From: an archaeon
GTDB taxonomy: Archaea > EX4484-52 > B79-G9
NCBI GenBank assembly: GCA_043813875.1
Contig: JBDRKP010000065.1
Location: 1 to 12,509, forward strand
Length of the DNA stretch: 12,509 nt
Direction of reading: 5' to 3'
The position numbers and the translations under genes were made by a program. The notes below the pieces were generated by a model. The model did no database searches, was not told where the DNA came from, and was given only the letters and a program-made list of their open reading frames with translations. Below, piece after piece: positions 1 through 12,509 of this stretch. Numbering within the stretch: position 1 is the first letter of the stretch; each line of letters opens with the position of its first letter.

Positions 1-1
1 T

Positions 2-88
2 AGGGAGTATGCATACTCGAAGAAAGATGAAAACATCGTCACTGAGTTCAAATTCAAGCAATTAACGTGGAATATTATGAGACTCTAA
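2..88 (+). CDS. 3' end of an upstream gene, partial (…REYAYSKKDENIVTEFKFKQLTWNIMRL*)
   Basis: Frame 2 is open from the window edge to TAA at 86-88. No recognisable motif. Confidence 0.35.
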   Translation, partial: REYAYSKKDENIVTEFKFKQLTWNIMRL

Positions 89-160
89 GCGGATTTTGCT
101 TGAGGAGTATAGACCTTTGGAGAAAGTAGTACAACAACACCGTTTTTTTGAGATTTTCGC

Positions 161-176
161 ATAGATTTATATATTT
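161..176 (+). promoter_or_regulatory. Putative archaeal-type TATA box for the his operon transcript
   Basis: ATAGATTTATATATTT (TTTATATA at 166-173) in the intergenic region upstream of the co-oriented gene cluster. Confidence 0.45.
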
Positions 177-219
177 AATCGTTCAGTTATTGACCAGTGA
201 TTAATATGGTTATGGGTGA

Positions 220-354
220 ATGTCTTCATCGGTGAATGTTTTCATTGAAGAATTATCCAGCCAGTGCTCTTTTCTTAACAAATATTTTAGAGATATAAGT
301 CTATGCAGCATTACTTCTGTATTTTTGAACAACTTAGCCGGAGGTGTATTTTGA
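220..354 (+). CDS. Possible 44-aa small ORF (MSSSVNVFIEELSSQCSFLNKYFRDISLCSITSVFLNNLAGGVF)
   Basis: ATG 220 to TGA 352-354, downstream of the TATA box. Its 3' end contains GGAGGTG (340-346). No homology recognised. Confidence 0.25.
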   Translation: MSSSVNVFIEELSSQCSFLNKYFRDISLCSITSVFLNNLAGGVF

Positions 355-360
355 TGAAGA

Positions 361-708
361 ATGAAATGTCAAAAAAGATGGGTGGATGTATTCACATCTG
401 TTGATGCGGATGCGGACGAATATAATGAAGATATAGTATATGCAGAAAAGAAAGAAGTTCTTTGTTTTAATGAAGCGGCGGATGATAAGGGCCGGAGTAT
501 TGTGCCTGCACCTCTCAGGCGGATGCGTTCTATTTCCAGAAACAACTGTGGCAGCGCCATTATAGAGCCTGTGATTCCTGTGAAGAGGGCCATATCCGAA
601 ACACAATCAGAGGTGTCAAGGATACTTGATTCTTTTGATAATGTGATCAATTACAGGCAATATGGCGATATTCTTGAGATAACGGTTGGCGGAGGTCGAT
701 TTCGATGA
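361..708 (+). CDS. Hypothetical protein (115 aa) at the head of the his operon
   Basis: Its stop overlaps the hisG start (ATGA at 705-708). GGAGGTG lies upstream at 340-346. Acidic N-terminus, no recognisable domain. Confidence 0.5.
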   Translation: MKCQKRWVDVFTSVDADADEYNEDIVYAEKKEVLCFNEAADDKGRSIVPAPLRRMRSISRNNCGSAIIEPVIPVKRAISETQSEVSRILDSFDNVINYRQYGDILEITVGGGRFR

Positions 709-1547
709 TCAGGCTTGCCATACCCAAGGGATATATGAACAAGAAGGTAATCGATCTTTTTTTGGATTGCGGTATCGTAATCAAGGAAAACGGCCGGTCA
801 TACAGGCCATATTGCAGCAATCCGGAAATCTCTGTGAAGATCAAAAAGCCGCAGAATATCGCAAAACTTGTCGAGTGCGGGGCGTATGATGCCGGTATCA
901 CCGGATATGACTGGGTCGTCGAATCTGGGGCTGATGTGGCTGAGGTTCTTGATCTTGGGTTCGATAAGGTCAAGATTGTCGCTGCTGTACCGACAGGATA
1001 TGATCTTGCGGGTGAAAAGAGGATTGTTGTCGCTTCAGAGTATGAGAACATATCGCGAAAGTTTCTTGATGAGAAAGGGTTCAAATATTCGTTTATCAGG
1101 TCTTATGGCGCTACAGAGGCATATCCGCCGGAAGATGCGGACATGATTGTCGAGAATGTGGCGACAGGGCGGACATTGGAGCAGAATAATCTCATGATTG
1201 TCTCAAGGATACTTGAATCGACAACAAGAATCATCGCGAACAAAAAGAGCATTGATGATGCCAGCAAAAGAAAGATCATCGATGACCTTGTCTGCGTGAT
1301 GAAGAGCGTGCTTCTGGGCAGATGCAAGGTCATGATCGAGATGAATGTTGATGAAAAACTGCTACCAGATTTGATAAAGGTCATACCGGCAATGAAAATG
1401 CCGACTGTCGCCAAACTTTACGGTGACTGCGGGTATGCTGTGAAGGCGTGCGTGGACAGGGGAATCGTGCGCGAGCTGATACCTATTCTTAAGACGGCAG
1501 GAGCAACCGATATTGTAGAATATGACCTCAGAAAGGTCGTGAGGTGA
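705..1547 (+). CDS. hisG: ATP phosphoribosyltransferase, long form with C-terminal regulatory domain
   Basis: RLAIPKG, DAGITGYDWVVE, LDLGF, SYGATEAYPPEDADMIVENVATGRTL, C-terminal PAMKMPTV…LKTAGATDIV. GGAGGT RBS upstream. Confidence 0.97.
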   Translation: MIRLAIPKGYMNKKVIDLFLDCGIVIKENGRSYRPYCSNPEISVKIKKPQNIAKLVECGAYDAGITGYDWVVESGADVAEVLDLGFDKVKIVAAVPTGYDLAGEKRIVVASEYENISRKFLDEKGFKYSFIRSYGATEAYPPEDADMIVENVATGRTLEQNNLMIVSRILESTTRIIANKKSIDDASKRKIIDDLVCVMKSVLLGRCKVMIEMNVDEKLLPDLIKVIPAMKMPTVAKLYGDCGYAVKACVDRGIVRELIPILKTAGATDIVEYDLRKVVR

Positions 1548-1551
1548 TTGA

Positions 1552-2838
1552 ATGACGACAATACCTATCCTTAAAAGCACGAAGTTTGATTGCAAAAGAC
1601 TGCGCCCGGATATGGATGATGCTCTCAATGCGGCGCGCCTGATAATAGATGATGTCAAGATGAGGGGCGATGAGGCATTAACCGAATATACGAAGAGATT
1701 CGATGGCGTCTACATCAATGAGCTCAAGGTGAGTGAAGAGGAAATCCGCGAAGCCTACTTTGTGGCTGATGAGGCGTTTGTCGCGTCAATACGCAAAGCC
1801 ATGGATAATGTCGAAAAGTTCCAGAAGGTCCTTTTGAAGGAGGATGTCTTTGCAGATATCTCCGATGGAATCAGATTGAGGTCGCTTGTGAGGCCGATCG
1901 ATAATATCGGCGCGTATGTGCCGGGAGGAACCGCATCATATGTGTCGACCGCTTATATGATCGGAATACCTGCAACGATTGCCGGGTGCAGGCGCAGGAT
2001 TGTCTTTACGCCGCCTAATAAATACGGCAAGATAAACCCGTATCTCATTGTCGCATGCGATATGGCGGGATTCAGCGAGATATACAAGGCGGGGGGAGCG
2101 CAGGCAATCGCTGCCATGGCATACGGGACCGAGAGTGCCGGCAAGGTCGAGAAGATATTCGGGCCGGGGAATGTGTTTGTGAATGCGGCCAAGATGATTG
2201 TCAGGGATGATGTCGCTGTCGATATGGTGGCGGGACCGTCGGAGGTGATGATCATCGCTGATGAATCGTGCAATCCGGCCTTTGTCGCAGCGGATATGCT
2301 TTCGCAGGCAGAGCATGATGCTTTATCCACAGCTCTGCTTCTCACTGATTCGCGTGATGTGGCGGATGCTGTGAAAAAAGAGATTGATTCGCAGCTAAAC
2401 GAGCTTCTGCGCAAGGACATCGCCAGAAAGGCGCTCAAGGATTACGGAAAAATCGTGGTATGCGAATCCATTGATGAATGCATCGATATCGCCAATGAGT
2501 TCGCTCCCGAGCACCTTGAGATCGCTACCAAGGATGCAGAGGATGCGCTTTCAAAGATAAGGAATGCAGGCTCTGTCTTTCTTGGCAATCTCTCGTCTGT
2601 CGTGATGGGAGATTATGCGACCGGGACCAACCACGTGCTTCCCACAATGGGATTCGCAAAGAGCATGTCGGGGCTTTCTGTTGATGATTTCGTGCGAAGG
2701 ATGGAAGTGAGTTCTATCGGGACTGAAGGACTTGCCGATATAGGGCAGACTATTGTGAGCCTTTCAGAGCTTGAGGGCCTCTTTGGGCACGCCAATGCAG
2801 TCAAATTAAGAATGGATAAAATGGAGGAGTCAAAATGA
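1552..2838 (+). CDS. hisD: Histidinol dehydrogenase
   Basis: GAYVPGG, GGAQAIAAMAYG, KIFGPGNVFV, DMVAGPSEV, DMLSQAEHD, FAPEHLE, GDYATGTNHVLPT. GAGGTGA RBS. Confidence 0.98.
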   Translation: MTTIPILKSTKFDCKRLRPDMDDALNAARLIIDDVKMRGDEALTEYTKRFDGVYINELKVSEEEIREAYFVADEAFVASIRKAMDNVEKFQKVLLKEDVFADISDGIRLRSLVRPIDNIGAYVPGGTASYVSTAYMIGIPATIAGCRRRIVFTPPNKYGKINPYLIVACDMAGFSEIYKAGGAQAIAAMAYGTESAGKVEKIFGPGNVFVNAAKMIVRDDVAVDMVAGPSEVMIIADESCNPAFVAADMLSQAEHDALSTALLLTDSRDVADAVKKEIDSQLNELLRKDIARKALKDYGKIVVCESIDECIDIANEFAPEHLEIATKDAEDALSKIRNAGSVFLGNLSSVVMGDYATGTNHVLPTMGFAKSMSGLSVDDFVRRMEVSSIGTEGLADIGQTIVSLSELEGLFGHANAVKLRMDKMEESK

Positions 2839-3416
2839 GCGTCAATGTTGAACGGAATACCAATGAGACAAAGATATGTGTAAAATTAGACATATACGGG
2901 AGCGGTCGGACGAAGATAGATACAGGGATACCGTTTTTTGACCACATGGTCGACAGCCTTGCACGGTTCGCACTGTTTGATCTTGTGGTCGAGTGCAAGG
3001 CAGACCTTGCTGTTGAAGATCACCACATGATAGAGGATGTGGCTATCGTGCTTGCGGAGGCGCTTCTTAAGGCTACGGGAGAACGGAAAGGCATAAACAG
3101 GATAGGCTATTCGATACTTCCTATGGATGATGCGGTCGTCATGGTGTCGATTGATCTTTCGAGGTCGTATTTCCAGCAGAGGGGCATCGCATTTTCGAAA
3201 GAGAAGTTCGGGAGCCTGTCTACTGAGAATATAGCGCCTTTTTTTGAGAGTCTTGCGCTCAATGCGAAGATGACGCTTTATATGAACAAGATTGAGGGAA
3301 CAAATGACCACCACATCGCTGAGGCGTGCTTCAAGGCGCTCGGATGCGCGCTCAAGATGGCGGTAGCGAAGGATGAAAGAATGCGTGATGCGCTGAGCAC
3401 GAAGGGTGTCTTATGA
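2835..3416 (+). CDS. hisB: Imidazoleglycerol-phosphate dehydratase (monofunctional)
   Basis: RNTNETKI, TGIPFFDHM, DHHMIEDV, PMDDA, NDHHIAEACFKA, STKGVL. No N-terminal phosphatase domain. ATGA overlap with hisD. Confidence 0.97.
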   Translation: MSVNVERNTNETKICVKLDIYGSGRTKIDTGIPFFDHMVDSLARFALFDLVVECKADLAVEDHHMIEDVAIVLAEALLKATGERKGINRIGYSILPMDDAVVMVSIDLSRSYFQQRGIAFSKEKFGSLSTENIAPFFESLALNAKMTLYMNKIEGTNDHHIAEACFKALGCALKMAVAKDERMRDALSTKGVL

Positions 3417-5137
3417 TGGTATCTGCCAAAAAATCGGTTTTAGGGATGAAGGAATATGTCCCACCAACGGCCAAGAGAAGAGGTATGCTTAGGCTTGACT
3501 TCAATGAGAATACGCGGGGGTGTTCGCCTAAGGTACTTGCCGCGCTCAAGGAGATCAAGGCAGATGATGTGTCCATATATCCGGATTACTCGGGTGTCTC
3601 CAAGATGATCGCCGGATATGTCGGGAACGGGATTGTGAGTGAACAGACAATGATCACAAACGGGAGCGATGAGGCAATCAAGTGTATCATGGATACTTAT
3701 GTCGAGTGCGGGGATGAGGTCGTGATGGCTGTGCCGACGTTTGACATATTCAGGGTGTATGCGACTGTCGCAGGGGCAAAGATTGTCGGTGTGCCTTATG
3801 GTGATGATATGGAGTTCCCGCTGGATGAGGTAGTATCTTCCATCAATGAGAGGACTAAGGTGGTGGTGATTGTGAATCCGAACAATCCTACCGGAACTGC
3901 CGTATCGAGGGAGGGGATACTGAAGGTCGTGAAGAAGGCAAAGGATTCTGTTGTCCTTATCGATGAGGCATATCTAGAGTATTACGGGGAGACGTGCGCT
4001 GATCTTGTCGCTATTTATGACAATGTATTTGTCATACGGACATTCTCCAAGGCGTTCGGGCTTGCGGGGCTAAGGATCGGGTATGTCCTGTCGGATGAGC
4101 GCAATATCGCATCACTGCTCAAGGTGAGGTCGCCTTACAGCATAGGGGCGGATGCGTGCATAGCGGTGGGTGCTGCGCTTGATGATGTTGATTTTGTCAG
4201 GGATTATGCGCGCGAGGTCAAAAAGAGCAGGAAGATGCTTTTTTTGGGGCTTTCCAGGCTCGGCGTCAAATGTTATCCGTCGTCTGCCAATTTTGTGCTT
4301 GCGGATTTCGGAAAGGATGCGGATTATGTGTGGAAGGAGCTTTTTTTGAATAACATCCTTACAAGAAGGTGGCCAATGAATGAGAGGCTCAAGAATTGTA
4401 TCAGGATAGGGGCAGGAACTTCTGAGGAGGCGGAGAAGGTGCTTTTGATTGTTGAGGCAGCGCTTTCTAAAAAGGAGGCGTTCATATTTGATGTAGACGG
4501 AGTGCTTGTCGACGTGTCCGGGTCTTACAGGCGGGCGGTGAAGGAGACGTGCGAGTTTTTCCTCAAAAGCGAGGTCACGGCGGATGAGATACAGAAGGTG
4601 AAGAATTCGGGCGGGTGCAATAATGACTGGGATCTTTCTATGAAAATCATCTCTCTGCGATGGAAAAATGTTCTGCGCGAGAATATAGTGTCAAAGTTCC
4701 AGGAGCTTTACATGAAGTACAGAAAGGATGAGAGATGGCTGATTTCACGGGATGTGATCGACGGGCTATCAAAGAGGTACAGGCTTGGAATCTTTAGCGG
4801 GAGGCCTCGAGAGGAATTGATTTTTGCTCTCCGTGAGTCCGGGATGGAGAAGTATTTCAATGCTGTCGTTGCCATGGAGGATGTGCCTGTGTCCAAGGGG
4901 AAGCCTGAGCCTTTCGGGTTGAAGCTTGCGCTTCGGATGCTCGGGTGCTCGAAGGGGTTCTATGCAGGGGATACTGTCGATGATGTCATGGCTGCAAAGG
5001 GCGCAGGGCTTGTGGCTGTCGGCGTGCTTGCCCCGCTGGACAAGTCGGATGAACTGAAAGGTATGCTGGTCTCTTTCGGGGCGGATTTTGTGGTGGATGA
5101 TGTCAATGACGTGTTAAACATTAATGGGGCGGTTTAG
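3413..5137 (+). CDS. hisC: Histidinol-phosphate aminotransferase fused to a C-terminal HAD-family hydrolase (probable histidinol-phosphate phosphatase)
   Basis: N-terminal ~350 aa: LDFNEN, NGSDEAI, NPNNPTG, IDEAY, RTFSKAFGLAGLRIG. C-terminal ~220 aa: FDVDGVLVD (HAD motif I, Asp codon at 4490), FSGRP, KPEP, GDTVDD. One continuous frame. Confidence 0.93.
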   Translation: MMVSAKKSVLGMKEYVPPTAKRRGMLRLDFNENTRGCSPKVLAALKEIKADDVSIYPDYSGVSKMIAGYVGNGIVSEQTMITNGSDEAIKCIMDTYVECGDEVVMAVPTFDIFRVYATVAGAKIVGVPYGDDMEFPLDEVVSSINERTKVVVIVNPNNPTGTAVSREGILKVVKKAKDSVVLIDEAYLEYYGETCADLVAIYDNVFVIRTFSKAFGLAGLRIGYVLSDERNIASLLKVRSPYSIGADACIAVGAALDDVDFVRDYAREVKKSRKMLFLGLSRLGVKCYPSSANFVLADFGKDADYVWKELFLNNILTRRWPMNERLKNCIRIGAGTSEEAEKVLLIVEAALSKKEAFIFDVDGVLVDVSGSYRRAVKETCEFFLKSEVTADEIQKVKNSGGCNNDWDLSMKIISLRWKNVLRENIVSKFQELYMKYRKDERWLISRDVIDGLSKRYRLGIFSGRPREELIFALRESGMEKYFNAVVAMEDVPVSKGKPEPFGLKLALRMLGCSKGFYAGDTVDDVMAAKGAGLVAVGVLAPLDKSDELKGMLVSFGADFVVDDVNDVLNINGAV

Positions 5138-5728
5138 ATGGAAGTATGCGTCGTTGATTACGGAGGAGGGAATGTCAGGAGCCTGTGCAATGCGCTTGAG
5201 TTTCTGGGCGCGGAGTATATATTGAGCGATGATGCGGAATATGTGCGCAATTCGGGCGTGCTTATGCTCCCGGGTGTCGGGAGTTTCGGTGCAGTCATGA
5301 ATGGCCTTGTGAAGAAGGGGCTTGATTCGGCTGTTGTCGATGCGATCGGGGCGGGGGCGAGGTTTTTTGGGATCTGCGTCGGTATGCAGGTGCTTTTCTT
5401 TGGGAGCGATGAGAGCCCGGGGGTCCCGGGGCTTTCGGTGATTGATGGAGATGTGGTCAGGTTCAACCGGGGGAAGGTGCCGCAGATCGGATGGAATACC
5501 ATCAGGACTTTGAATGAGGGTGTTTTTTTGGACGGGTATGTTTATTTTGTGAATTCATATTATTGCGTGCCGAGGGATATGGGGGTTGCCGCGTGCTTAA
5601 CGGAGTATGGGGGATTGAATTTCTGTAGCGCTTTGAGGCGCGGGAATGTCTATGCGACGCAGTTCCACCCGGAAAAGAGCGGATGGCTCGGGCTTGAGAT
5701 CATCAGGAGGTGGCTTTATGATCGCTAA
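5138..5728 (+). CDS. hisH: Imidazole glycerol phosphate synthase, glutaminase subunit
   Basis: VDYGGGNVRS, LPGVGSF, GICVGMQ, VPQIGWN, YFVNSY, TQFHPEKSG. Confidence 0.97.
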   Translation: MEVCVVDYGGGNVRSLCNALEFLGAEYILSDDAEYVRNSGVLMLPGVGSFGAVMNGLVKKGLDSAVVDAIGAGARFFGICVGMQVLFFGSDESPGVPGLSVIDGDVVRFNRGKVPQIGWNTIRTLNEGVFLDGYVYFVNSYYCVPRDMGVAACLTEYGGLNFCSALRRGNVYATQFHPEKSGWLGLEIIRRWLYDR

Positions 5729-6482
5729 GAGGATCGTGCCGTGCCTTGATATGAAGGACGGGAAGGTCGTGAAGGGAGTAGGTTTTGATAATCTTCGGGA
5801 TGCCGGGGATCCTGTAGTGCTTGCGCGGAAGTATTATGAAGACGGGGCAGATGAGATTGTCTTTCTTGATATCAGCGCGTCTACTGATAAAAGGGATATC
5901 CTGATCGATGTAGTTTCCAGGACGGCTTCTGAGATATTCATACCATTCACTGTCGGGGGAGGGGTGAGGAGCGTCTCTGACATTTCACGGATACTTGCGA
6001 ACGGGGCGGACAAGGTGGCATTGAATACTAATGCGGTCCTTGATCCGTGGCTTATTTCAAAAGCGGCAAAGGAGTTCGGGGCGCAGTGTGTGGTTGTCGC
6101 TGTCGATGCGAAATGGAACGGCAGGTTTTTCGAGGTTTTCATATTCGGCGGAAAGGAGGGTACCGGGATGGATGCAGTCTCATGGGTGAAGAGGTGCGAG
6201 GAACTCGGCTGCGGGGAGATTCTTCTTACTTCGATTGACAGGGACGGCACGAAGTCGGGGTTTGATACCGGGCTTATCAGGAAAGTCTCAACATGCGTCA
6301 ATGTGCCTGTCATCGCTTCCGGCGGGGCGAGGGGGCCTGAGGATTTCTATGATGCATTTTTAGCGGGCGCTGATGCGGCGCTTGCGGCATCGATCTTTCA
6401 CTATAGCAAATATACTATCGGTGACATAAAGGAGTTTTTGAAAAAAAAAGGAGTTGTTGTAAATGATGAAACTTTTGGGTAA
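5718..6482 (+). CDS. hisF: Imidazole glycerol phosphate synthase, cyclase subunit
   Basis: Start reassigned from 5646 to ATG 5718 (AGGAGGTGG at 5705-5713; canonical MIAKRIVPCLD). Also GADEIVFLDISA, PFTVGGG, GEILLTSIDRDGTKSGFD, ASGG, AALAASIFH. Confidence 0.97.
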   Translation: MIAKRIVPCLDMKDGKVVKGVGFDNLRDAGDPVVLARKYYEDGADEIVFLDISASTDKRDILIDVVSRTASEIFIPFTVGGGVRSVSDISRILANGADKVALNTNAVLDPWLISKAAKEFGAQCVVVAVDAKWNGRFFEVFIFGGKEGTGMDAVSWVKRCEELGCGEILLTSIDRDGTKSGFDTGLIRKVSTCVNVPVIASGGARGPEDFYDAFLAGADAALAASIFHYSKYTIGDIKEFLKKKGVVVNDETFG

Positions 6483-6527
6483 ATTTGGGGGTTTCAACCT
6501 CTACAATGGATGCATGGGTGATTGTAA

Positions 6528-7799
6528 ATGATTTTACCAAGTATTGATCTGTTGGACGGGAAAGCGGTGCAGCTGGTTGGCGGAGATCCCTTAAAGAAAA
6601 AGGTTGTCGTTGATGATGTTTTCGGGCTTGCGAGTGAGTTCTTTCGGTACGGGAAGTTCCAGGTGATTGATCTTGATGCAGCTTTCTGGAAGGGGAGAGA
6701 TAACAGAGGCATTGTAAAGGAGCTTTGCAGGAAGTATGATGTCAGGGTCGGCGGGGGTATAAGGACTGTCGATGAGGCGGTTGAGCTTGTCAGGTGCGGC
6801 GCAAAAGAGGTCATTATCGGGACGCGGGCGAACAAAGAGTTCCTAAAGGAACTTTGCGATGCTATCGGGCGAAAGAGGGTTGTTGTCGCGCTTGATGCGA
6901 GGAATGGAATGGTCGAGTCATGGGGATGGACCAAGGGTACTGGAAGGAGCGTTCTTGAGGTCGCAAAAGAGCTTGAGAACTACTGCTCTGAGTTCCTCTA
7001 TACCTGTATCGATAAGGAAGGGCGCATGATTGGCGGTGATATTGATACGGTCATGAAGCTCAAGGAAATCACGTCTAATAAGATCTGCGCGTCCGGAGGG
7101 ATATCTGCGGTTGATGAGATACGGAAGTTCGATGAGATAGGCGCTAATGTGGTCTTGGGGATGGCGCTTTATACAGGGAAGCTTTCTCTTGATGAGGTGT
7201 TTGCATCAAGGGTTGATTTTGCCAAGGGCGGGGGCATTGTGCCTGTTGTTGTCCAGGAGGCGGTCTCGCGGGATGTGCTTATGGTCGGATATATGGATAA
7301 GGAGGCGCTTTCTTTGACGCTCAAATCGGGTAAGATGACATATTACAGCAGGTCGAGGAAGAAGATGTGGGTCAAGGGCGAGGAGAGCGGGAATTCGCAG
7401 GAGCTTGTGTCTATAAAGCTTGACTGCGACAGGGACACTGTTCTTGCGACGGTCAGGCAGACGGGAGGTGCATGCCACACGGGAAGCTATTCATGCTTTG
7501 GTGATGAGAACCGGTCAGAAAGTAATATATTAACTGGCGTGTATAATGTTATCCAGGAAAGGATCAAGTATCCAAAAGAGGATTCATATACAAGCAAAAT
7601 CGCGAAGGATAAGGAACTGATCTCACGAAAGATCAATGAAGAGGCTCTGGAGGTCATTATTGCTTCAAAGGACGGGAAAAGAGAAGAGATCGTGTGGGAG
7701 ATTGCCGATCTTGTGTATTTTATTCTTGTTCTTGCTGCTGCCAATGATATCGATATGAGAGAGATATGGAATATGCTTGATTCAAGAAGGAGTGGTTGA
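6528..7799 (+). CDS. hisA: Trifunctional fusion: ProFAR isomerase (HisA), PR-AMP cyclohydrolase (HisI) and PR-ATP pyrophosphohydrolase (HisE)
   Basis: HisA: ILPSIDLLDGKAVQL, VIDLDAA, VGGGIR, ASGGI. HisI: PVVVQE, YYSRSR…WVKGEESGN, DCDRD, ACHTGSYSCF. HisE: SYTSKI, KINEEALEV, EIADLVY. Confidence 0.93.
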   Translation: MILPSIDLLDGKAVQLVGGDPLKKKVVVDDVFGLASEFFRYGKFQVIDLDAAFWKGRDNRGIVKELCRKYDVRVGGGIRTVDEAVELVRCGAKEVIIGTRANKEFLKELCDAIGRKRVVVALDARNGMVESWGWTKGTGRSVLEVAKELENYCSEFLYTCIDKEGRMIGGDIDTVMKLKEITSNKICASGGISAVDEIRKFDEIGANVVLGMALYTGKLSLDEVFASRVDFAKGGGIVPVVVQEAVSRDVLMVGYMDKEALSLTLKSGKMTYYSRSRKKMWVKGEESGNSQELVSIKLDCDRDTVLATVRQTGGACHTGSYSCFGDENRSESNILTGVYNVIQERIKYPKEDSYTSKIAKDKELISRKINEEALEVIIASKDGKREEIVWEIADLVYFILVLAAANDIDMREIWNMLDSRRSG

Positions 7800-7800
7800 T

Positions 7801-9087
7801 ATGGTCAAAATCGAGAAAGTGAAGGGCATGAGGGATTATGAGACTGAGGACATGGTCCTTCGGCGGAATGTCGTGGCGATGGTTGAGAAGATATTTGAGG
7901 CGCGCGGATTTGTGCCTATCGAGACGCCTGCGCTTGAGAAGTGGGATGTGCTTGCAGGGAAAGATGCAGGCGGGCGCGATATCTTAGAGCAGACGTTCAA
8001 TTTCCTTGACCAGGGGGACAGGAGGGTAGGGCTCAGGTATGATCTTACTGTGCCGCTTGTGAGATATGTGTCCGAGAGATCGAATATGGGGTTCCCGTTC
8101 AAGAGGTACCAGTACGGGCGAGTGTGGAGGTATGAGGAGACGCGGAAAGGACGGTATCGTGAGTTTTACCAGTTTGATATTGATATTGTCGGGGCTGGCT
8201 CTGTCGCTGCTGATGCCGAGTGCATAGCGACTATCACGGAGGCGCTTGGGGCGCTCGGTGTCGGGAAGTTCAAGGTGCTTATCAGCAACCGGAAGGTTGC
8301 CGAAGGGGTGCTTAATTTTCTTGGGATAAAGACGAAGAAGCAGGTTGACGGGGCGATGAGGACTATCGACAAGGCGGAGAAGCTGTCGAGGGCGAATCTT
8401 ATCAAGGAGTTCAAGCAGTATGATATTGTGGAGGCGCAGGCGATTGAGATCATCAATGCGCTTTCGAGGAAGGGCAGGCCGGTCGAGGTCATACGCAGCA
8501 TGTTGAAGGAGTTCCCGGACAATGACAAGGTACTTCTGGGTATCTCTGAGCTTGAGAAGCTTGTGGATTATCTCAATGCTTACGGGGTGACTGACAGGTG
8601 TGAGCTTGATCTTTCGCTTGTGCGGGGGCTCGGGTATTATACGGGGTGCGTGTTTGAGGCGCGGCTTGATAAGGGAGGGGACAGCATCGCGGGAGGCGGA
8701 CGTTATGATAAGGTCATCGGGTCGTTTACTTCGCGAGAGATTCCGGCGGTCGGGTTTTCGCTCGGCATCGAGAGGATCCTTAATATCCTGAAGGAGAAGG
8801 ATTATGTGAAGAGGCCGCTTGTTGAGTATTTTGTGCTTTATGCGGGGGCGGAGATGGAGTTTTCGGCTATCAAGATCGCGGAGGCGCTACGGGCTGAGGG
8901 GAGGATTGCCGAGGTCGATCTTATGGGAAGGAATTTTTCCGGGCAGATGAAGTATGCGGACAGGATTGGAGCGCTGAAAGTGGTCATCGTCGGGCAGAAA
9001 GAGATGGCCAGCGGCAATGTGGTTGTGAAGGATATGAAGAGCGGGAAGGAGCTAATAGTTGCTGTCGAGGGGATTTTGGGGGTCTGA
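7801..9087 (+). CDS. hisS: Histidyl-tRNA synthetase
   Basis: Likely start ATG 7801 (AGGAGTGG upstream). KGMRDY, LRYDLTVP, WRYE…GRYREFYQFDID, LVRGLGYYTG, GGGRYD, plus a C-terminal anticodon-binding domain (QMKYAD…VIVGQKE…VVKDM). Confidence 0.96.
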   Translation: MVKIEKVKGMRDYETEDMVLRRNVVAMVEKIFEARGFVPIETPALEKWDVLAGKDAGGRDILEQTFNFLDQGDRRVGLRYDLTVPLVRYVSERSNMGFPFKRYQYGRVWRYEETRKGRYREFYQFDIDIVGAGSVAADAECIATITEALGALGVGKFKVLISNRKVAEGVLNFLGIKTKKQVDGAMRTIDKAEKLSRANLIKEFKQYDIVEAQAIEIINALSRKGRPVEVIRSMLKEFPDNDKVLLGISELEKLVDYLNAYGVTDRCELDLSLVRGLGYYTGCVFEARLDKGGDSIAGGGRYDKVIGSFTSREIPAVGFSLGIERILNILKEKDYVKRPLVEYFVLYAGAEMEFSAIKIAEALRAEGRIAEVDLMGRNFSGQMKYADRIGALKVVIVGQKEMASGNVVVKDMKSGKELIVAVEGILGV

Positions 9088-9091
9088 GTTG

Positions 9092-9922
9092 TCATATCAA
9101 GTGCGATAGTCTTTCTATGTCACGGTTTGTCACGTGGGTGTAAATCTGCGTTGTCCTTATGTCTTTGTGGCCTAGAAGCTTTTGGATGTGGCGTATATCC
9201 GCGCCATTGTCTAGTAAATGGGTTGCAAAGGCGTGCCTTAATGTGTGAGGTGTTGCTTTTTTGTTAAATGTTGGCAGAGTTGATGCTTTTTTTACTATCT
9301 TCTGGATTGTTTTTTTGTTGTATCTTGTTCCTCTTTTTGATATGAAAATGAAGCCTTTGTCTTTGATGTCGTGTAGTTTCAAGACTCCTTTTAGGCTGTT
9401 GTGGAGGAAAACTATGCGGTGTTTGTCACCTTTTGCTGTCTTTAAGTGTATGATTGAGCGTTCAAAGTCAATGTCCTGCCACATGAGGTTTCTTACTTCG
9501 TCGAGCCTTAAGCCTGCGTAGTACAAAAACATCAAGATGAGCCGATGTTTGAGATTTGCGGTCGAGTTGATTATGATGTCTATGTCGTGCCTGCTTAGGA
9601 TGACGGGAAGTTTCTGATCTTTTTTTGCCAGAGGGATTTTTTGATTGAAATCAATGTCTAAGACGTGATTGTGGAAGAATTTCAGGGCAAAATAGTTTGT
9701 TCTTACGGTGGAGTTGGATTTCTCTGATTGCATTAAGAGATAGTCTCTTGGGCTTTTTCCTGTTTTGAGGTAGTTTTTGATTATTGATATGTAGACTTTT
9801 CCTGTCTCGTAGGAGTATTTGCGTAGTTTGATTTCTTCGATTAGTTTGCCGATGAGGCGATATATCTCATCTGGTGTGTGAATGATTGTGGGATTTTGGT
9901 CTTGAGTTTTTGTGTATATCAT
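9092..9922 (-). CDS. Tyrosine recombinase, integron-integrase-like / XerA-like (~276 aa)
   Basis: Catalytic set YAGLRLDE (R), AKGDK (K), HTLRH (HxxR), LLGH, TTQIYTHV (Y). N-terminal LRKYSYET..VY and KLPVILS resemble IntI. Start reassigned to ATG 9922 because the longer 10069 frame runs through the att region and a TATA-like box lies ~25 bp upstream of 9922. Confidence 0.9.
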   Translation of the reverse strand: MIYTKTQDQNPTIIHTPDEIYRLIGKLIEEIKLRKYSYETGKVYISIIKNYLKTGKSPRDYLLMQSEKSNSTVRTNYFALKFFHNHVLDIDFNQKIPLAKKDQKLPVILSRHDIDIIINSTANLKHRLILMFLYYAGLRLDEVRNLMWQDIDFERSIIHLKTAKGDKHRIVFLHNSLKGVLKLHDIKDKGFIFISKRGTRYNKKTIQKIVKKASTLPTFNKKATPHTLRHAFATHLLDNGADIRHIQKLLGHKDIRTTQIYTHVTNRDIERLSHLI

Positions 9923-9953: not shown

Positions 9954-9996
9954 ATTGTGGATAGGGTTTGCCGATAGCCGATATAATTAAATCGCC

Positions 9997-10067
9997 AAAA
10001 AGTTCGCTTTTTGCTCATTTTTTGAGGGTTAAACGAACTAAAAGTTCGTTTAATAGTTGTTATATTC
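9997..10067 (+). other. attI-like primary recombination site
   Basis: Upstream of the divergent recombinase. Direct repeat AAAAGTTCG (9998-10006, 10040-10048), perfect 11-bp inverted repeat TTAAACGAACT-AAA-AGTTCGTTTAA (10029-10053), then the core GTTATATTC (10059-10067). Confidence 0.65.
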
Positions 10068-10221
10068 AATCGTCGTGTAGAATTATTAGGGGGGGGTTTC
10101 CGCCTTTAGTGCTACGCACATTTAGCCTTTTTCTACGAAAAAGAATTTATAAGGGGGATTTCCTAAGTCCTGCGAACATTTTGCCTCACTTCGTGAGAAT
10201 ATTAATAGAAAGAGAGGGCGT
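10066..10221 (+). repeat. Non-coding cassette module, copy A (imperfect inverted repeat of 11772-11910)
   Basis: Five colinear blocks shared with the reverse complement of copy B: TCGTCGTGT, GGGGGTTTCCGCC, AAAAAGAAT, GGGGGATTT, AGAGAGGGCGT. Confidence 0.75.
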
Positions 10222-10222
10222 T

Positions 10223-11569
10223 TTATTCTAATTTTGCTCCCTTTTTACGATTACATTCAATACATAAAAGTTGTCCATTTTCAACTATGGATCTTCCGGT
10301 TTTACTATGAGGGACTATATGGTCTGCCTCAAATTCTGCCCAAAGTATCTCTTTCTTACAATTTTGACATAATCCTCCTGCTTTTCTAAATATCTCAATT
10401 TTATCTTTCAAATTAAATGCCCTTTTTTCATCTAATTCCGCAATATGAGGACATTTTGCAAAGAATGATGAAGTTATAATCATATCTCTAGATATTAAAC
10501 TAGCCTTGTCTTGTTGTCGTTTGTTACTAAATCTAATAATTTCATCATCTTCGTCATTTTGTTTTATCCACCTGCTAAAAAAATCAAAAATAAACTCTCT
10601 AAATTCAGGATAATTATTTTTTCCGAAATTATACTTTTTTGAGTTTAATTTTCTTAACAAAATATATGTAGAAATAATAAAATATTCCCTACTAAGCATG
10701 ATAGCTTCTCCTTTCTTATCTTTAAATTTTTGATCATTAAATATTTCATATAATATCTTTAACATATTTAGACAATTTATAACTTCTTTCTTCTTTTCAA
10801 ATTCACTAAGAGGCATATTTGAATAGTGATCCATTAATTTTGTAATTTCAGTATCTTTTAGTTCTGAGGGACCATCTTCAAACTCAATTATTAGAAATCG
10901 TGCCAATAATGCAAGATTTTGCAAACGATCATTATTTTGTTTAATTATTTTAAAAAATTTGTGTCTATCTGGATTTTCATCCTTTGAGAGATATTCCTTA
11001 TCATTGAAGGAGATATCATCAGCATATTTTACTATAAAATTTCTAGATGCACTATATAATTTAGAATGCTCAATTTCAAAATTACTTAGGGGGACCCCGG
11101 AATTTAGTCTTTGAAAAATTCCCGAAACGATCTTTTGGTGTTTTTTGTTGTGAGGATCATTTATTATCCCTATCTTACTACAGGGCAATACTAATTCTTC
11201 AAAATATTCTTGAACTTCTGGATCCATTTTAGAGAATAATCTTCCTCCGAATTTATCATTTATTTCATTTAGTACCAAGGGGGTTTTAAATCCATCTTCA
11301 AAAAATTCTTGAATTGCAGTAATTCTTTGCTGTCCATCAATAACATCAAACTTTAAAACTCCTTCTTTTGGAACAACTTCTCTTAAGATAATTCTTGGAA
11401 CAAAATATTTTCTAAATAAGCTCTCAATAAATTTCTGTTTTTTAATAGGAGGCCAAACATTTTTTCTTTGATAGGGTGGCCTTTTAATGTAGAGATTTTT
11501 TTTATTATTAAAATCTTTAAGATAAATTTCTCCATCCGTGGCCATAAAATCGGTTTTAATGTGAATCAT
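10223..11569 (-). CDS. DUF262 (ParB-like, GmrS-type) domain fused to a C-terminal HNH endonuclease; probable restriction/defence nuclease
   Basis: DUF262 motifs RPPYQRKNVW, IESL, VIDGQQRITAI, FQRLNSGVPLS. C-terminal CQNC…EADHIVPHSKTG…NGQLLCIECNRKKG (Zn-binding HNH). Confidence 0.88.
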   Translation of the reverse strand: MIHIKTDFMATDGEIYLKDFNNKKNLYIKRPPYQRKNVWPPIKKQKFIESLFRKYFVPRIILREVVPKEGVLKFDVIDGQQRITAIQEFFEDGFKTPLVLNEINDKFGGRLFSKMDPEVQEYFEELVLPCSKIGIINDPHNKKHQKIVSGIFQRLNSGVPLSNFEIEHSKLYSASRNFIVKYADDISFNDKEYLSKDENPDRHKFFKIIKQNNDRLQNLALLARFLIIEFEDGPSELKDTEITKLMDHYSNMPLSEFEKKKEVINCLNMLKILYEIFNDQKFKDKKGEAIMLSREYFIISTYILLRKLNSKKYNFGKNNYPEFREFIFDFFSRWIKQNDEDDEIIRFSNKRQQDKASLISRDMIITSSFFAKCPHIAELDEKRAFNLKDKIEIFRKAGGLCQNCKKEILWAEFEADHIVPHSKTGRSIVENGQLLCIECNRKKGAKLE

Positions 11570-11712
11570 TTCCTGTCCCCCTTCCCCCTCAATTCCTCAA
11601 CCATAAAATTCTCAAACTGCTTCGACAAAATAATACCTTTTTGTTCGCAGTGTTTTCTGTATTCTTCATAAACTCCTTCTTCAACACTTAATGATACGGT
11701 TCTTTTTGCCAT
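11566..11712 (-). CDS. Small ribbon-helix-helix (CopG/Arc-like) DNA-binding protein, 48 aa (MAKRTVSLSVEEGVYEEYRKHCEQKGIILSKQFENFMVEELRGKGDRK)
   Basis: Translated by hand; below the ORF-track cutoff. Alternating beta-strand RTVSLSV followed by two amphipathic helices with a KG-I-LS turn. Its TGA overlaps the DUF262 ATG (ATGA). Confidence 0.75.
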   Translation of the reverse strand: MAKRTVSLSVEEGVYEEYRKHCEQKGIILSKQFENFMVEELRGKGDRK

Positions 11713-11728
11713 ATTTACCAATCCATTT

Positions 11729-11768
11729 ATGTATATATAAGCTTAAATGTAACTTATTTATAAATCTT
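11729..11768 (-). promoter_or_regulatory. Putative archaeal promoter (and operator) of the RHH-DUF262 operon
   Basis: Minus strand has AAGATTTATAAATAAG (11768-11753) and CTTATATATACAT (11741-11729). ATGTA is repeated at 11729 and 11747. Confidence 0.5.
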
Positions 11769-11771
11769 ACG

Positions 11772-11910
11772 ACGCCCTCTCTAAAAAATCTTCTTTTTGT
11801 AAAAAGAACCAAAAACAACGCAAATCCCCCCACTATTCTTTTTTTATAAAAAATAAGCAAAAAACGGCGGCGGAAACCCCCATAAAAAACTATAGACACG
11901 ACGACTTTGA
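11772..11910 (-). repeat. Non-coding cassette module, copy B (inverted relative to 10066-10221)
   Basis: Top-strand blocks ACGCCCTCTCT 11772-11782, AAATCCCCC 11822-11830, ATTCTTTTT 11835-11843, GGCGGAAACCCCC 11869-11881, ACACGACGA 11896-11904. Confidence 0.75.
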
Positions 11911-11957
11911 TTTTTTGCCTTCGGCATCGTTGCACTAAAAATCAATCCCTATCGGGA

Positions 11958-12089
11958 GAATATAACAGCGATTAAGAGATTCCGAAGTCTTGCAGACTTC
12001 TCCATCCAAATTCGGTTTTTGTGGGTTGCCTCAAAACCTACGGGGAAATAAATCCTTCGGATTTACTTCTCTTAATCGCGATGTTAGTT
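11958..12089 (+). other. attC-like cassette recombination site (~130 bp hairpin)
   Basis: Left arm GAATATAAC-A-GCGATTAAGAGA; right arm TCTCTTAATCGC-GA-T-GTTAGTT. TAACA pairs with TGTTA, followed by a perfect 12-bp stem (11968-11979 with 12068-12079). Three internal hairpins form the variable terminal structure. Confidence 0.8.
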
Positions 12090-12254
12090 TCAATTGAGAA
12101 TTCGCCGTCCTATATAATTTAAAATCGCCCTTTAGCCATCCCCCGACCACCCGTCCCAGTTACGAGGTGCGCGCCTGTCCTTCGGACAATTTGTGAAACT
12201 TCGTTTCAAATTTATTTAGAAATAATCTTTTTTCCGCCGCCGAAAAATTTTGAT

Positions 12255-12271
12255 AGAAAGTTTTATATAAG
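12255..12271 (+). promoter_or_regulatory. Archaeal BRE-TATA-like promoter inside cassette 2
   Basis: AGAAAGTTTTATATAAG: a purine-rich BRE-like stretch followed by TTTATATA. Confidence 0.6.
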
Positions 12272-12365
12272 TCTTTCTTTTACTTTTATTGTGGGGTGAT
12301 GGTACCTCAGAAACCTTATTCTGAATCACAATAAAGTTTAAATAAACTAAATGCAGCTTAAGAAC

Positions 12366-12509
12366 ATGGAAAAAGCATATCAACCATCCAGAGAACAGCA
12401 AGACTATCTTGAGATTAGTTCTGTTTTGGAAAATGCACCTTACCTTCTTAACGAAGGTAGAAGTTTGAGTTATGTTGGTGCAGGAAAATCCAAATCTGGA
12501 ACTTGTAAT
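12366..12509 (+). CDS. 5' part of a hypothetical cassette gene (MEKAYQPSREQQDYLEISSVLENAPYLLNEGRSLSYVGAGKSKSGTCN…), partial
   Basis: Open to the window edge, downstream of the BRE-TATA. An alternative in-frame ATG lies at 12351. Confidence 0.5.
   Translation, partial: MEKAYQPSREQQDYLEISSVLENAPYLLNEGRSLSYVGAGKSKSGTCN

Follow-up and report, generated by a model that had tools for sequence, protein, structure and literature searches.

The stretch of DNA considered here (the window) is an entire contig, C65, of 12,509 nt (GenBank JBDRKP010000065.1) from a metagenome-derived archaeal genome of 1.64 Mb in 90 contigs that is 91.5% complete, and our subject is a tyrosine recombinase gene that it carries together with a neighboring low-GC segment ending in a folded site similar to the attC sites of integrons. 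Histidine biosynthesis genes and the gene for histidyl-tRNA synthetase occupy positions 1-9087 of the plus strand (GC content ~45-55%); the recombinase gene follows them on the minus strand and the DNA beyond it has a GC content of 24-34% (Table 1). The host is archaeal: the nearest recombinases are named from Nanoarchaeota, Pacearchaeota, Woesearchaeota, Aenigmatarchaeota, Altiarchaeales, Diapherotrites and Thermoplasmatales, and TFIIB and a V-type ATPase subunit are encoded in the flanks of the corresponding arrays of relatives. The host phylum is sampled by 42 species genomes of one order.

Table 1. Annotated features of the window; an empty cell means that no strand or basis is assigned.
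Feature	Positions	Strand	Basis or remark
Putative integrase, XerA-type tyrosine recombinase, 276 aa	9092-9922	-	Profile hidden Markov models, structure comparison, alignment
Direct repeat of the attI arm motif, 23 nt, TTAAATCGCCAAAAAGTTCGCTT	9987-10009; copy 2 at 10029-10051	+	Repeat search
attI-like L arm, 11-bp perfect inverted repeat with 3-nt spacer (TTAAACGAACT AAA AGTTCGTTTAA)	10029-10053		
attI-like R box (TGTTA core 10058-10062, TATTC 10063-10067)	10056-10070	+	
Cassette 1, ~2 kb, GC 24-34%	10063-12086		From attI core to outer core of its own attC-like site
Inverted copy of non-coding modules, mirror of 11822-11910	10066-10161	+	Collinear inverted matches
Cassette gene, GmrSD_N (DUF262) + HNH nuclease	10223-11569	-	PF03235, 1.1e-17; PF01844, 1.3e-11
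Open reading frame (ORF), 51 aa	11566-11721	-	Ribbon-helix-helix-like by eye; no match to a hidden Markov model
Non-coding modules M2 and M1 (M1 contains TTTAGTGCAACG; M2, small hairpins)	11822-11955	-	Inner side of the attC-like site
attC-like folded site	11956-12090	-	DNA folding; R1 covariance model, 89.2 bits
Cassette 2, beginning only, ended by the contig end; open ORF from 12351	12087-12509	+	No Pfam match

The recombinase matches PF00589 (E 8.8e-39) and has the catalytic residues R139, K164, H226, R229, H252 and Y261 (R-K-H-R-H-Y), which among 109 sequences are invariant, H226 nearly so. The original prediction, which was made from the DNA letters, was that this protein appears to have no counterpart of the insertion (I2) that defines the integron integrases (IntI), given that only ~15 residues seemed to lie between KHRIVFLH and GFIFISKRG. 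The spacing is exactly 15 residues (NSLKGVLKLHDIKDK), and phmmer, MAFFT, profile and AlphaFold results all agree that the insertion is absent. A phmmer search against PDB chains aligned the protein in a single stretch to the archaeal XerA structures 4a8e (E 6.4e-36) and 5hxy (E 9.3e-35), whereas the alignment to the integrase VchIntIA (2a3v) was broken into two stretches (query 60-182 to chain 55-178 and query 200-268 to chain 241-309), leaving 17 query residues opposite 62 residues of VchIntIA, a difference of ~45 residues. In a MAFFT alignment with IntI1 of R388 and XerD of E. coli, the IntI1 insertion is opposite gaps in the window protein, and the same gaps are present in a typical family member, in a same-genus relative linked to a cassette array and in a relative from the candidate phyla radiation (CPR) of bacteria. 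The insertion is missing from 36 of the 36 aligned close relatives and from the array-linked relatives described below.

Profile hidden Markov models (HMMs) and structure prediction lead to the same conclusion. The top NCBIfam model is that of archaeal XerA (NF040815, XerA_Arch) with 178.5 bits, under its cut-off of 220; a relative from another genome of the phylum (G007) scores 202.7 bits with this model, and more distant array-linked relatives are above the cut-off, at 220.8-266.4 bits. The integron integrase model TIGR02249 comes second (171.7 bits vs a cut-off of 265) and, like NF011946 (112.7 bits vs 435), is matched in two stretches; in array-linked relatives of the 35-47% identity class the IntI model is likewise matched only in two pieces. 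An AlphaFold model built from 109 diverse relatives (pLDDT, the predicted local distance difference test score, 91.4) has short strands and no helix at residues 184-202, the place of the helix in IntI; an earlier prediction from 36 close relatives (alignment A1) reached a pLDDT of 58 and was discarded. Foldseek ranked XerA 5hxy first (E 9.2e-16), followed by VchIntIA (template modeling score, TM, 0.76) and XerA 4a8e.

The second element of interest is the folded site. Positions 11968-11979 (GCGATTAAGAGA) are fully paired with 12068-12079 in a perfect 12-bp stem, next to which GA at 12080-12081 is unpaired and AACA (11964-11967) pairs with TGTT (12082-12085), giving the site AAC/GTT ends; the inner R box is at 11958-11967 and the outer core TGTTA at 12082-12086. 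The interior of the stem is a branched junction bearing small hairpins with 3-nt loops. As DNA, the site folds with z-scores of -4.8 (plus strand) and -5.1 (minus strand), and 0 of 200 shuffles fold equally well. The predicted 2-nt GA bulge beside the R box followed by a perfect 12-bp stem is confirmed. The accompanying claim, that the usual extrahelical bases are lacking, holds with one correction: the stem has no single-base bulge, and the two-sided spacer is absent as well, but the GA bulge is not a minor irregularity, a bulge on this arm being conserved in 71 of 71 sites of the family described next. A conserved one-sided bulge of 2-4 nt stands in place of the extrahelical bases.

The family was defined with the help of contig C16 of G007, where a recombinase gene encoding a 63%-identical protein is followed by host-like DNA and preceded by at least 6.8 kb of low-GC DNA, the latter with four hairpins of the same build as that of the window and ORFs in between. 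A covariance model, R1, was made from five hairpins, these four and the window copy. At E <= 0.01 it has matches in 31 of the 42 phylum genomes (150 listed and 21 more), and in 203,630 nt from 24 sources it gives 71 matches, on one strand per contig. Applied to the class 1 integron of R388, R1 gives no site, and switching its filters off does not change this; 49 kb of E. coli DNA is likewise without a match. Among the 71 aligned sites, 93.8% of cells are paired, vs 72.2% in shuffled controls (the observed value is reached by none of 500) and 33-56% in slid-partner controls; cells changed on both sides number 316 vs 95 shuffled, and 19 of 23 pairs show two-sided changes, including 10 of the 11 pairs of the L stem. 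The R-box pairs UA, AU, AU and CG, i.e., the TAAC/GTTA core, are conserved in 65, 70, 71 and 68 of the 71 sites, respectively. The bulge is always on the arm beside the outer core (3 nt in 48 sites, 2 nt in 20 and 4 nt in 3) and on the modeled strand mostly reads TAT, TC, TTT or TCT, whereas the opposite arm has no unpaired nucleotide in 58 sites and one in 13. From TAAC to GTTA the sites measure 73-124 nt, with a median of 84. At the tip there is a branched junction that bears two small hairpins; their stems covary, and most of the loops read GNA. On the modeled strand CGNAG occurs 128 times and its complement CTNCG 12 times. Triloops of the d(GNA) type closed by a C-G pair are unusually stable in DNA.

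In relatives, 4-7 sites are arranged in tandem with unrelated genes between them, and the way in which neighboring sites are joined provides evidence for cassettes. In 48 consecutive site pairs from 23 array segments, we compared the 5-nt flank of each site beyond its inner GTTA with the 5-nt flank beyond the outer TAAC of its neighbor on the recombinase side. Complementarity averages 4.04 of 5 nt; 22 junctions are perfect and 17 match at 4/5, while the site's own flank gives 2.44 and shuffled partners 2.42 +/- 0.16 (maximum 3.04 in 10,000 shuffles); by chance, 2.8 perfect junctions would be expected, with a maximum of 10. The flanks are diverse (24 different 5-mers). Complementarity between neighbors, with a site's own flank at the level of shuffles, is the signature expected of cassettes that enter as circles by exchange inside the core; only in the circular form of a cassette does its R box pair over ~10 bp. 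The window cassette obeys the same rule, its inner flank TATTC being complementary to GAATA at the attI junction (5/5). The nine junctions that match at 3 nt or fewer may reflect missed sites or rearrangements. The alignment (A3) used for the pairing counts was fitted to R1, which inflates these counts, and the junction test, which is independent of A3, is for this reason given more weight.

Upstream of the recombinase gene is the putative docking site, in which the core TGTTATATTC (10058-10067) is preceded by a palindrome and a further arm repeat; its TATTC is read as cassette-derived. The 23-nt direct repeat is possibly an accessory binding site, and three such arm repeats precede the recombinase gene in G007. 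The same order of an outer-type R box, 3 nt and a palindrome is found before the recombinase gene in G007, in G005 (two loci) and in G034 (two loci). Elsewhere in the window's own genome, contig C77 carries a 71-nt attI-like copy (23521-23591, 90% identical) followed by ~4.3 kb of low-GC DNA, and contig C80 has a third attI-like core (34707-34727) followed by ~0.5 kb of low-GC DNA. Neither core has a recombinase gene nearby and the C77 island contains no R1 site; a secondary docking role is possible for both. The C77 island also has, between two of its ORFs, a palindrome (L107:7037-7053), ATATAAC-GGT-GTTATAT, which resembles abutted R-box halves without a stem. On contig C40 (16431-16904), an attC-like site of 35 bits ends a low-GC stretch, and of the recombinase gene that follows, a member of the same family (57-67% identity), only the final ~68 codons are left; this is a second, decayed platform.

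A XerA-like gene is located at the inner side of 11 of the 23 array segments (8 on the same strand, 3 on the opposite one) and at the outer side of none; nine of the other 12 segments end at a contig end within ~1 kb, and three have >1.2 kb of gene-less inner DNA in the fetched part. Conversely, R1 was run at E <= 0.1 on loci that had been collected by means of the protein alone; it gave 12 matches in 80 genome loci (1.2 Mb) and 11 in 80 metagenome loci (0.47 Mb), and 23 of 23 are upstream of the recombinase gene on the same strand. These matches come from 15 loci with recombinases 37-47% identical to that of the window, six of the loci being titled Patescibacteria-type or, once, Gammaproteobacteria. 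There is no match in the remaining 145 loci, which are mostly of ordinary bacterial Xer proteins. In five whole genomes to which the six genome-collection loci with matches led (four CPR-type and one Gammaproteobacteria, by title), 11 of 13 R1 matches are on the recombinase contig, and one of the five has no match at E <= 0.01. Query-specific peptides were used in the genome-collection scan, whose results were CPR and ordinary Xer loci and did not include the 60-86% family; in the metagenome collection, alignment A1 with two generic motifs retrieved a single close member.

A quick tree of 109 sequences, which contains no proven XerA, groups 22 of the 23 recombinases linked to arrays in a single clade (SH-aLRT, the Shimodaira-Hasegawa-like approximate likelihood ratio test, 96) along with 12 sequences without an R1 site; IntI1 is outside this clade on a long unresolved branch. 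At E <= 1e-70, the window subfamily is present in 3 of the 28 genomes of its own phylum that are at least 80% complete, and its members are 59-65% identical across several other archaeal phyla. One cluster of the family at 90% identity (P0008) comprises 20 contigs named Nanoarchaeota, Pacearchaeota and 'Euryarchaeota', a variety of lineage names that hints at recent spread between lineages. A search of a viral contig collection (query P0012) found no member of the family. A single full-length XerA-like gene was found in the window's own genome, while G005 has at least four separate loci with a recombinase gene and an array.

The G005 genome also makes it possible to compare content at what looks like the same position. 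It shares the hisIE-hisS-recombinase order, with 81% protein identity for the part of the recombinase that is present and 79% DNA identity over 1,698 nt; across hisS, the recombinase gene and attI the DNA identity is 78-79%. Its contig C162, which we infer to adjoin C42, contains the gene start, a docking site and seven sites of the family; the GmrSD cassette is absent and other cassettes are found instead. The window cassette itself is present at 90-99% identity in contigs of four out of four groundwater runs from two studies. There the homology begins at 10059-10061, inside the core, and is preceded by unlike DNA. The recombinase gene and positions 12276-12509 are not covered by these contigs, which does not imply absence of the gene (the best run shares 0.20 of sampled words), and as the data are contigs and not reads, they speak of the presence of the cassette in another context and not of its excision. 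In runs X1-X3 some contigs join 10086-10088 to 11885-11887, skipping ~1.8 kb; such contigs may represent the cassette without its cargo or an artefact of the repeat. The sides of the joints 10086>11887, 10088>11885 and 11631>11887 are 28-31 nt long with 90% likeness, and we leave them uninterpreted.

The product of the large cassette gene is, by its domains, of a type IV restriction-like defence kind. The 51-aa ORF has relatives with 37-39% identity in two other array-bearing loci (L259:1223-1369 and L258:4483-4596), small ORFs of likewise ribbon-helix-helix-like appearance within a few hundred nt of attC-like sites. A Pfam scan of 46 ORFs (six arrays, their flanks and the window ORF at 12351) left 29 without a family; the others include a nucleotidyltransferase/HepT pair, HNH, DUF4365, a GNAT protein and an enzyme of the pyridoxal phosphate (PLP) type. 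One inter-site interval of 6.9 kb holds sugar-metabolism genes, and the outer flanks carry ordinary host genes. More than 20 loci in other genomes match the non-coding region 11904-12012 (M1 and the inner part of the site) at 79-90% identity, among them a CPR bacterial locus, L016, at 82% over 120 nt. The 12-mer TTTAGTGCAACG with one mismatch occurs at control-level frequency across the phylum, so that exact matches alone are informative. The summed contig depth in the four groundwater runs is 37-304 over bins 11808-12041 vs 6-30 for the body of the cassette. The two non-coding ends of the window cassette mirror each other, an inverted copy of the modules at 10066-10161 facing 11822-11955; the modules may act as a promoter, a second protein site or a replication element. 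Very many contigs (e.g., G003:C81, G012:C98, L004, L007, L010, L012 and L110) stop 100-600 nt upstream of the gene for the recombinase, as if the assemblies were broken by a repeat or by strain variation.

As to the rest of the window, no tRNA gene was detected within its 12,509 nt, and an Rfam scan at E <= 5 gave three matches, all at chance level. Two ORFs of the histidine block appear by eye to encode fusions: 3413-5137 (574 aa), an aminotransferase with a C-terminal HAD-type phosphatase-like part, and 6528-7799 (423 aa), a HisA-like with a HisIE-like part.

We propose, with a probability of about 0.72, that the window contains the integrase end of an integron-like cassette platform located in the chromosome of a small archaeon and served by a XerA-type recombinase without I2. 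The recombinase is most likely the enzyme of the platform, which has a site architecture of its own and ranges from DPANN-type archaea to CPR bacteria. This is close to what the original prediction had envisaged, i.e., a separate clade of recombinases with a hairpin code of its own, a view now backed by the missing insertion, the site family, the junctions, the recombinase genes at the inner ends and the architecture of the bulge. Its further suggestion of a non-canonical integron annotated as Xer is supported as well, whereas the ancestral type named there as an alternative is no more than a possibility.

Such a platform would operate in the following way. The docking site just upstream of the recombinase gene (attI-like, 10029-10070) would be followed by cassettes, each with a terminal folded attC-like site. 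A cassette would leave as a circle, in which the R-box halves (5 nt + TAAC-A and T-GTTA + 5 nt) would pair over ~10 bp. One strand would then fold into the R-box duplex, the one-sided bulge of 2-4 nt, an L stem of 11-12 bp and the branched tip with GNA loops; the predicted folding strand is the minus strand of the window, which bears the C-GNA-G loops. The recombinase would recognize the shape of this structure and not its sequence, and strands would be exchanged inside the TAAC/GTTA core with attI or another attC-like site as a partner. We infer that the enzyme in question is this recombinase, that its substrate is single-stranded and that the resulting junction is resolved by replication.

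A number of observations weigh against this proposal. Excision, circles and strand exchange are so far predictions, all genomes are metagenome assemblies with many arrays ending at contig ends, and the window contains one complete cassette only. Its own genome gives only three R1 matches, 11 of the 42 phylum genomes give none, and several XerA-like genes of the phylum have no R1 site on the same contig. The recombinase gene is on the opposite strand in three arrays, and cassette ORFs face it in some arrays, the window included, and point the opposite way in others, so that no common promoter logic is evident. Finally, as the sole full-length XerA-like gene found in its genome, it may have a housekeeping role of a dimer resolvase as well.

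The last point leads to an explanation that is compatible with the proposed platform: the protein is a housekeeping XerA first, the attI-like site is its dif site, and the cassettes, hairpin-bearing hitch-hikers acting like integrative mobile elements exploiting Xer (IMEX) of the CTX phage type, pile up there with no dedicated integrase. The XerA_Arch model is the best HMM match and the array-linked relatives exceed its cut-off; two species of the genus have the gene beside hisS; and the attI-like site is a short arm-spacer-arm site next to the gene, as predicted for dif and xerA in Sulfolobales in the part of Cortez et al. available to us (PMC2958812), which also has the two not adjacent in Thermococcales. 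Moreover, in the available text of Escudero et al. 2020 (PMC7790495) integrases are proposed to stem from just such a Xer-like ancestor, hijacked by single-stranded IMEX elements. We nevertheless consider this explanation unlikely. The four or more recombinase-plus-array loci of G005, and the three attI-like cores (C65, C77 and C80) and the decayed C40 platform in the window's own genome, speak against it, and the patchiness of the subfamily in its own phylum together with 59-65% identity across other archaeal phyla is unlike a vertically inherited housekeeping gene. It is less probable still that the sites are ordinary double-stranded cores (R box and L arm) with the inverted half as a second binding site and no strand folded. 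Xer-type enzymes normally use duplex DNA, the window protein lacks the I2 helix into which flipped-out bases could dock, and the outer half of the site is attI-like in layout (R box, 3 nt, ATTAA-containing arm). The L-stem sequence is, however, free to vary while its pairing is kept, with two-sided changes at 10 of 11 pairs, which indicates selection on pairing within a strand and not on sequence-specific binding; furthermore, the ~10-bp R-box pairing is restricted to the circular form, the bulge is always on the same arm, and one strand carries ten times as many C-GNA-G loops as the other.

Two other explanations concern the nature of the element as a whole. A single integrated island, i.e., a defence island or a remnant of a plasmid or virus with its own integrase and inverted terminal repeats, would account for a 2-kb low-GC segment with a defence gene adjoining the integrase and for the imperfect inverted repeats at its sides (10050-10161 and 11822-11975). 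It would account neither for 4-7 tandem sites with unrelated genes in relatives nor for the junction signature, and with the orthologous G005 locus differing in content and no match to the recombinase family in the viral contig collection, we regard it as very improbable. Least credible of all is a canonical integron with a merely divergent integrase, to which the second rank of TIGR02249, the TM of 0.76 with VchIntIA and the AAC/GTT ends of the site might point. It is contradicted by the alignment, in which the defining insertion is absent, and both IntI models fall far below their cut-offs; in addition, R1 is blank on R388 and the site has no two-sided unpaired spacer.

A broader claim, that an I2-less Xer lineage performs hairpin-based cassette capture across DPANN archaea and CPR bacteria, is at present a tentative one. 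If it is true, integron-style single-strand recombination does not need I2, or the platform preserves the postulated pre-I2 stage of bacterial integrons; integron-like integrases are hidden among the genes annotated as XerC, XerD or XerA in ultra-small microbes; and cassettes pass between the two domains, as the non-coding modules are 79-90% identical in archaeal and CPR loci. The view of the field, in the part of PMC7790495 available to us, is that I2, known there from no other protein, confers single-strand recombination and that its gain allowed a Xer-like enzyme to recombine folded single strands safely. A natural system of cassettes with folded sites and no I2 would make this claim directly testable by standard assays. 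For DPANN archaea and CPR bacteria with their tiny genomes a route of gene capture is indicated, and tools that depend on the IntI domain, as well as the XerC/D naming, would miss such platforms.

A full-text literature search, which covered few subscription journals, found no report in which Xer-type recombinases lacking the insertion are tied to cassette arrays bounded by hairpins. Xer-related recombinases of candidate phyla were grouped as 'Cand' and treated as Xer stand-ins by Smyshlyaev et al. 2021 (PMC8138268), as far as the accessible part of that paper goes. Archaeal integrons were described by Ghaly et al. 2022 (PMC9668308), whose accessible text reports 75 archaeal genomes with 539 attC sites, mostly in arrays without an integrase (CALINs), and six IntIs, each of which has the IntI-specific domain according to the detection method of that study. 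The platform is similar to these in that arrays are found in archaeal metagenome genomes, but those IntIs have the insertion, and the four assayed attC sites that we could inspect in Data S9 are, in our reading, canonical, GC-rich and spaced on both arms. In the one supplement file of that study available to us, neither the motif strings of the present family nor the names Micrarchaeota, Altiarchaeota, Iainarchaeota and Undinarchaeota are present.

The likeness to integrons, especially sedentary chromosomal ones, extends to the general plan of an integrase gene, a docking site and a cassette array, to the imperfect palindrome at cassette ends in which only the AAC...GTT letters are conserved and pairing is kept over sequence, to the outer R-box half that belongs to the neighboring cassette, and to cassette genes that are mostly of unknown function or of defence or toxin-antitoxin type. 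Unlike an integron, the platform has a recombinase without I2 and a one-sided bulge of 2-4 nt right after a 5-bp core, where attC has a central spacer and extrahelical bases; its sites are trailed by conserved non-coding modules, its cassette genes often point at the integrase gene and have their own upstream regions, and its hosts are DPANN-type archaea and CPR bacteria. With the IMEX of the CTX phage type, as presented in the accessible part of PMC7790495, it would share the use of an I2-less Xer enzyme and of a folded single-stranded mimic of the core site. The folded site of the platform mimics the attI-like arm-spacer-arm core; its units, however, are not phage genomes but small cassettes of promoter and gene, arrayed in tandem and sharing one family of sites, the recombinase gene is located at the array, and one homologous recombinase is implied instead of a XerC/XerD pair.

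In its fold, its nearest structures (4a8e and 5hxy) and its HMM neighborhood, the recombinase is close to the archaeal XerA of P. abyssi and T. acidophilum. XerA acts on a single 28-bp duplex dif site per chromosome, and we know of no description of cassette arrays for archaeal XerA/dif. The pdif modules of Acinetobacter plasmids are also genes bounded by Xer-type sites and are thought to be mobile via the host Xer. Their sites, 28-bp duplexes, flank a module on both sides and alternate in orientation, whereas the platform described here has one folded site of 73-124 nt per cassette.

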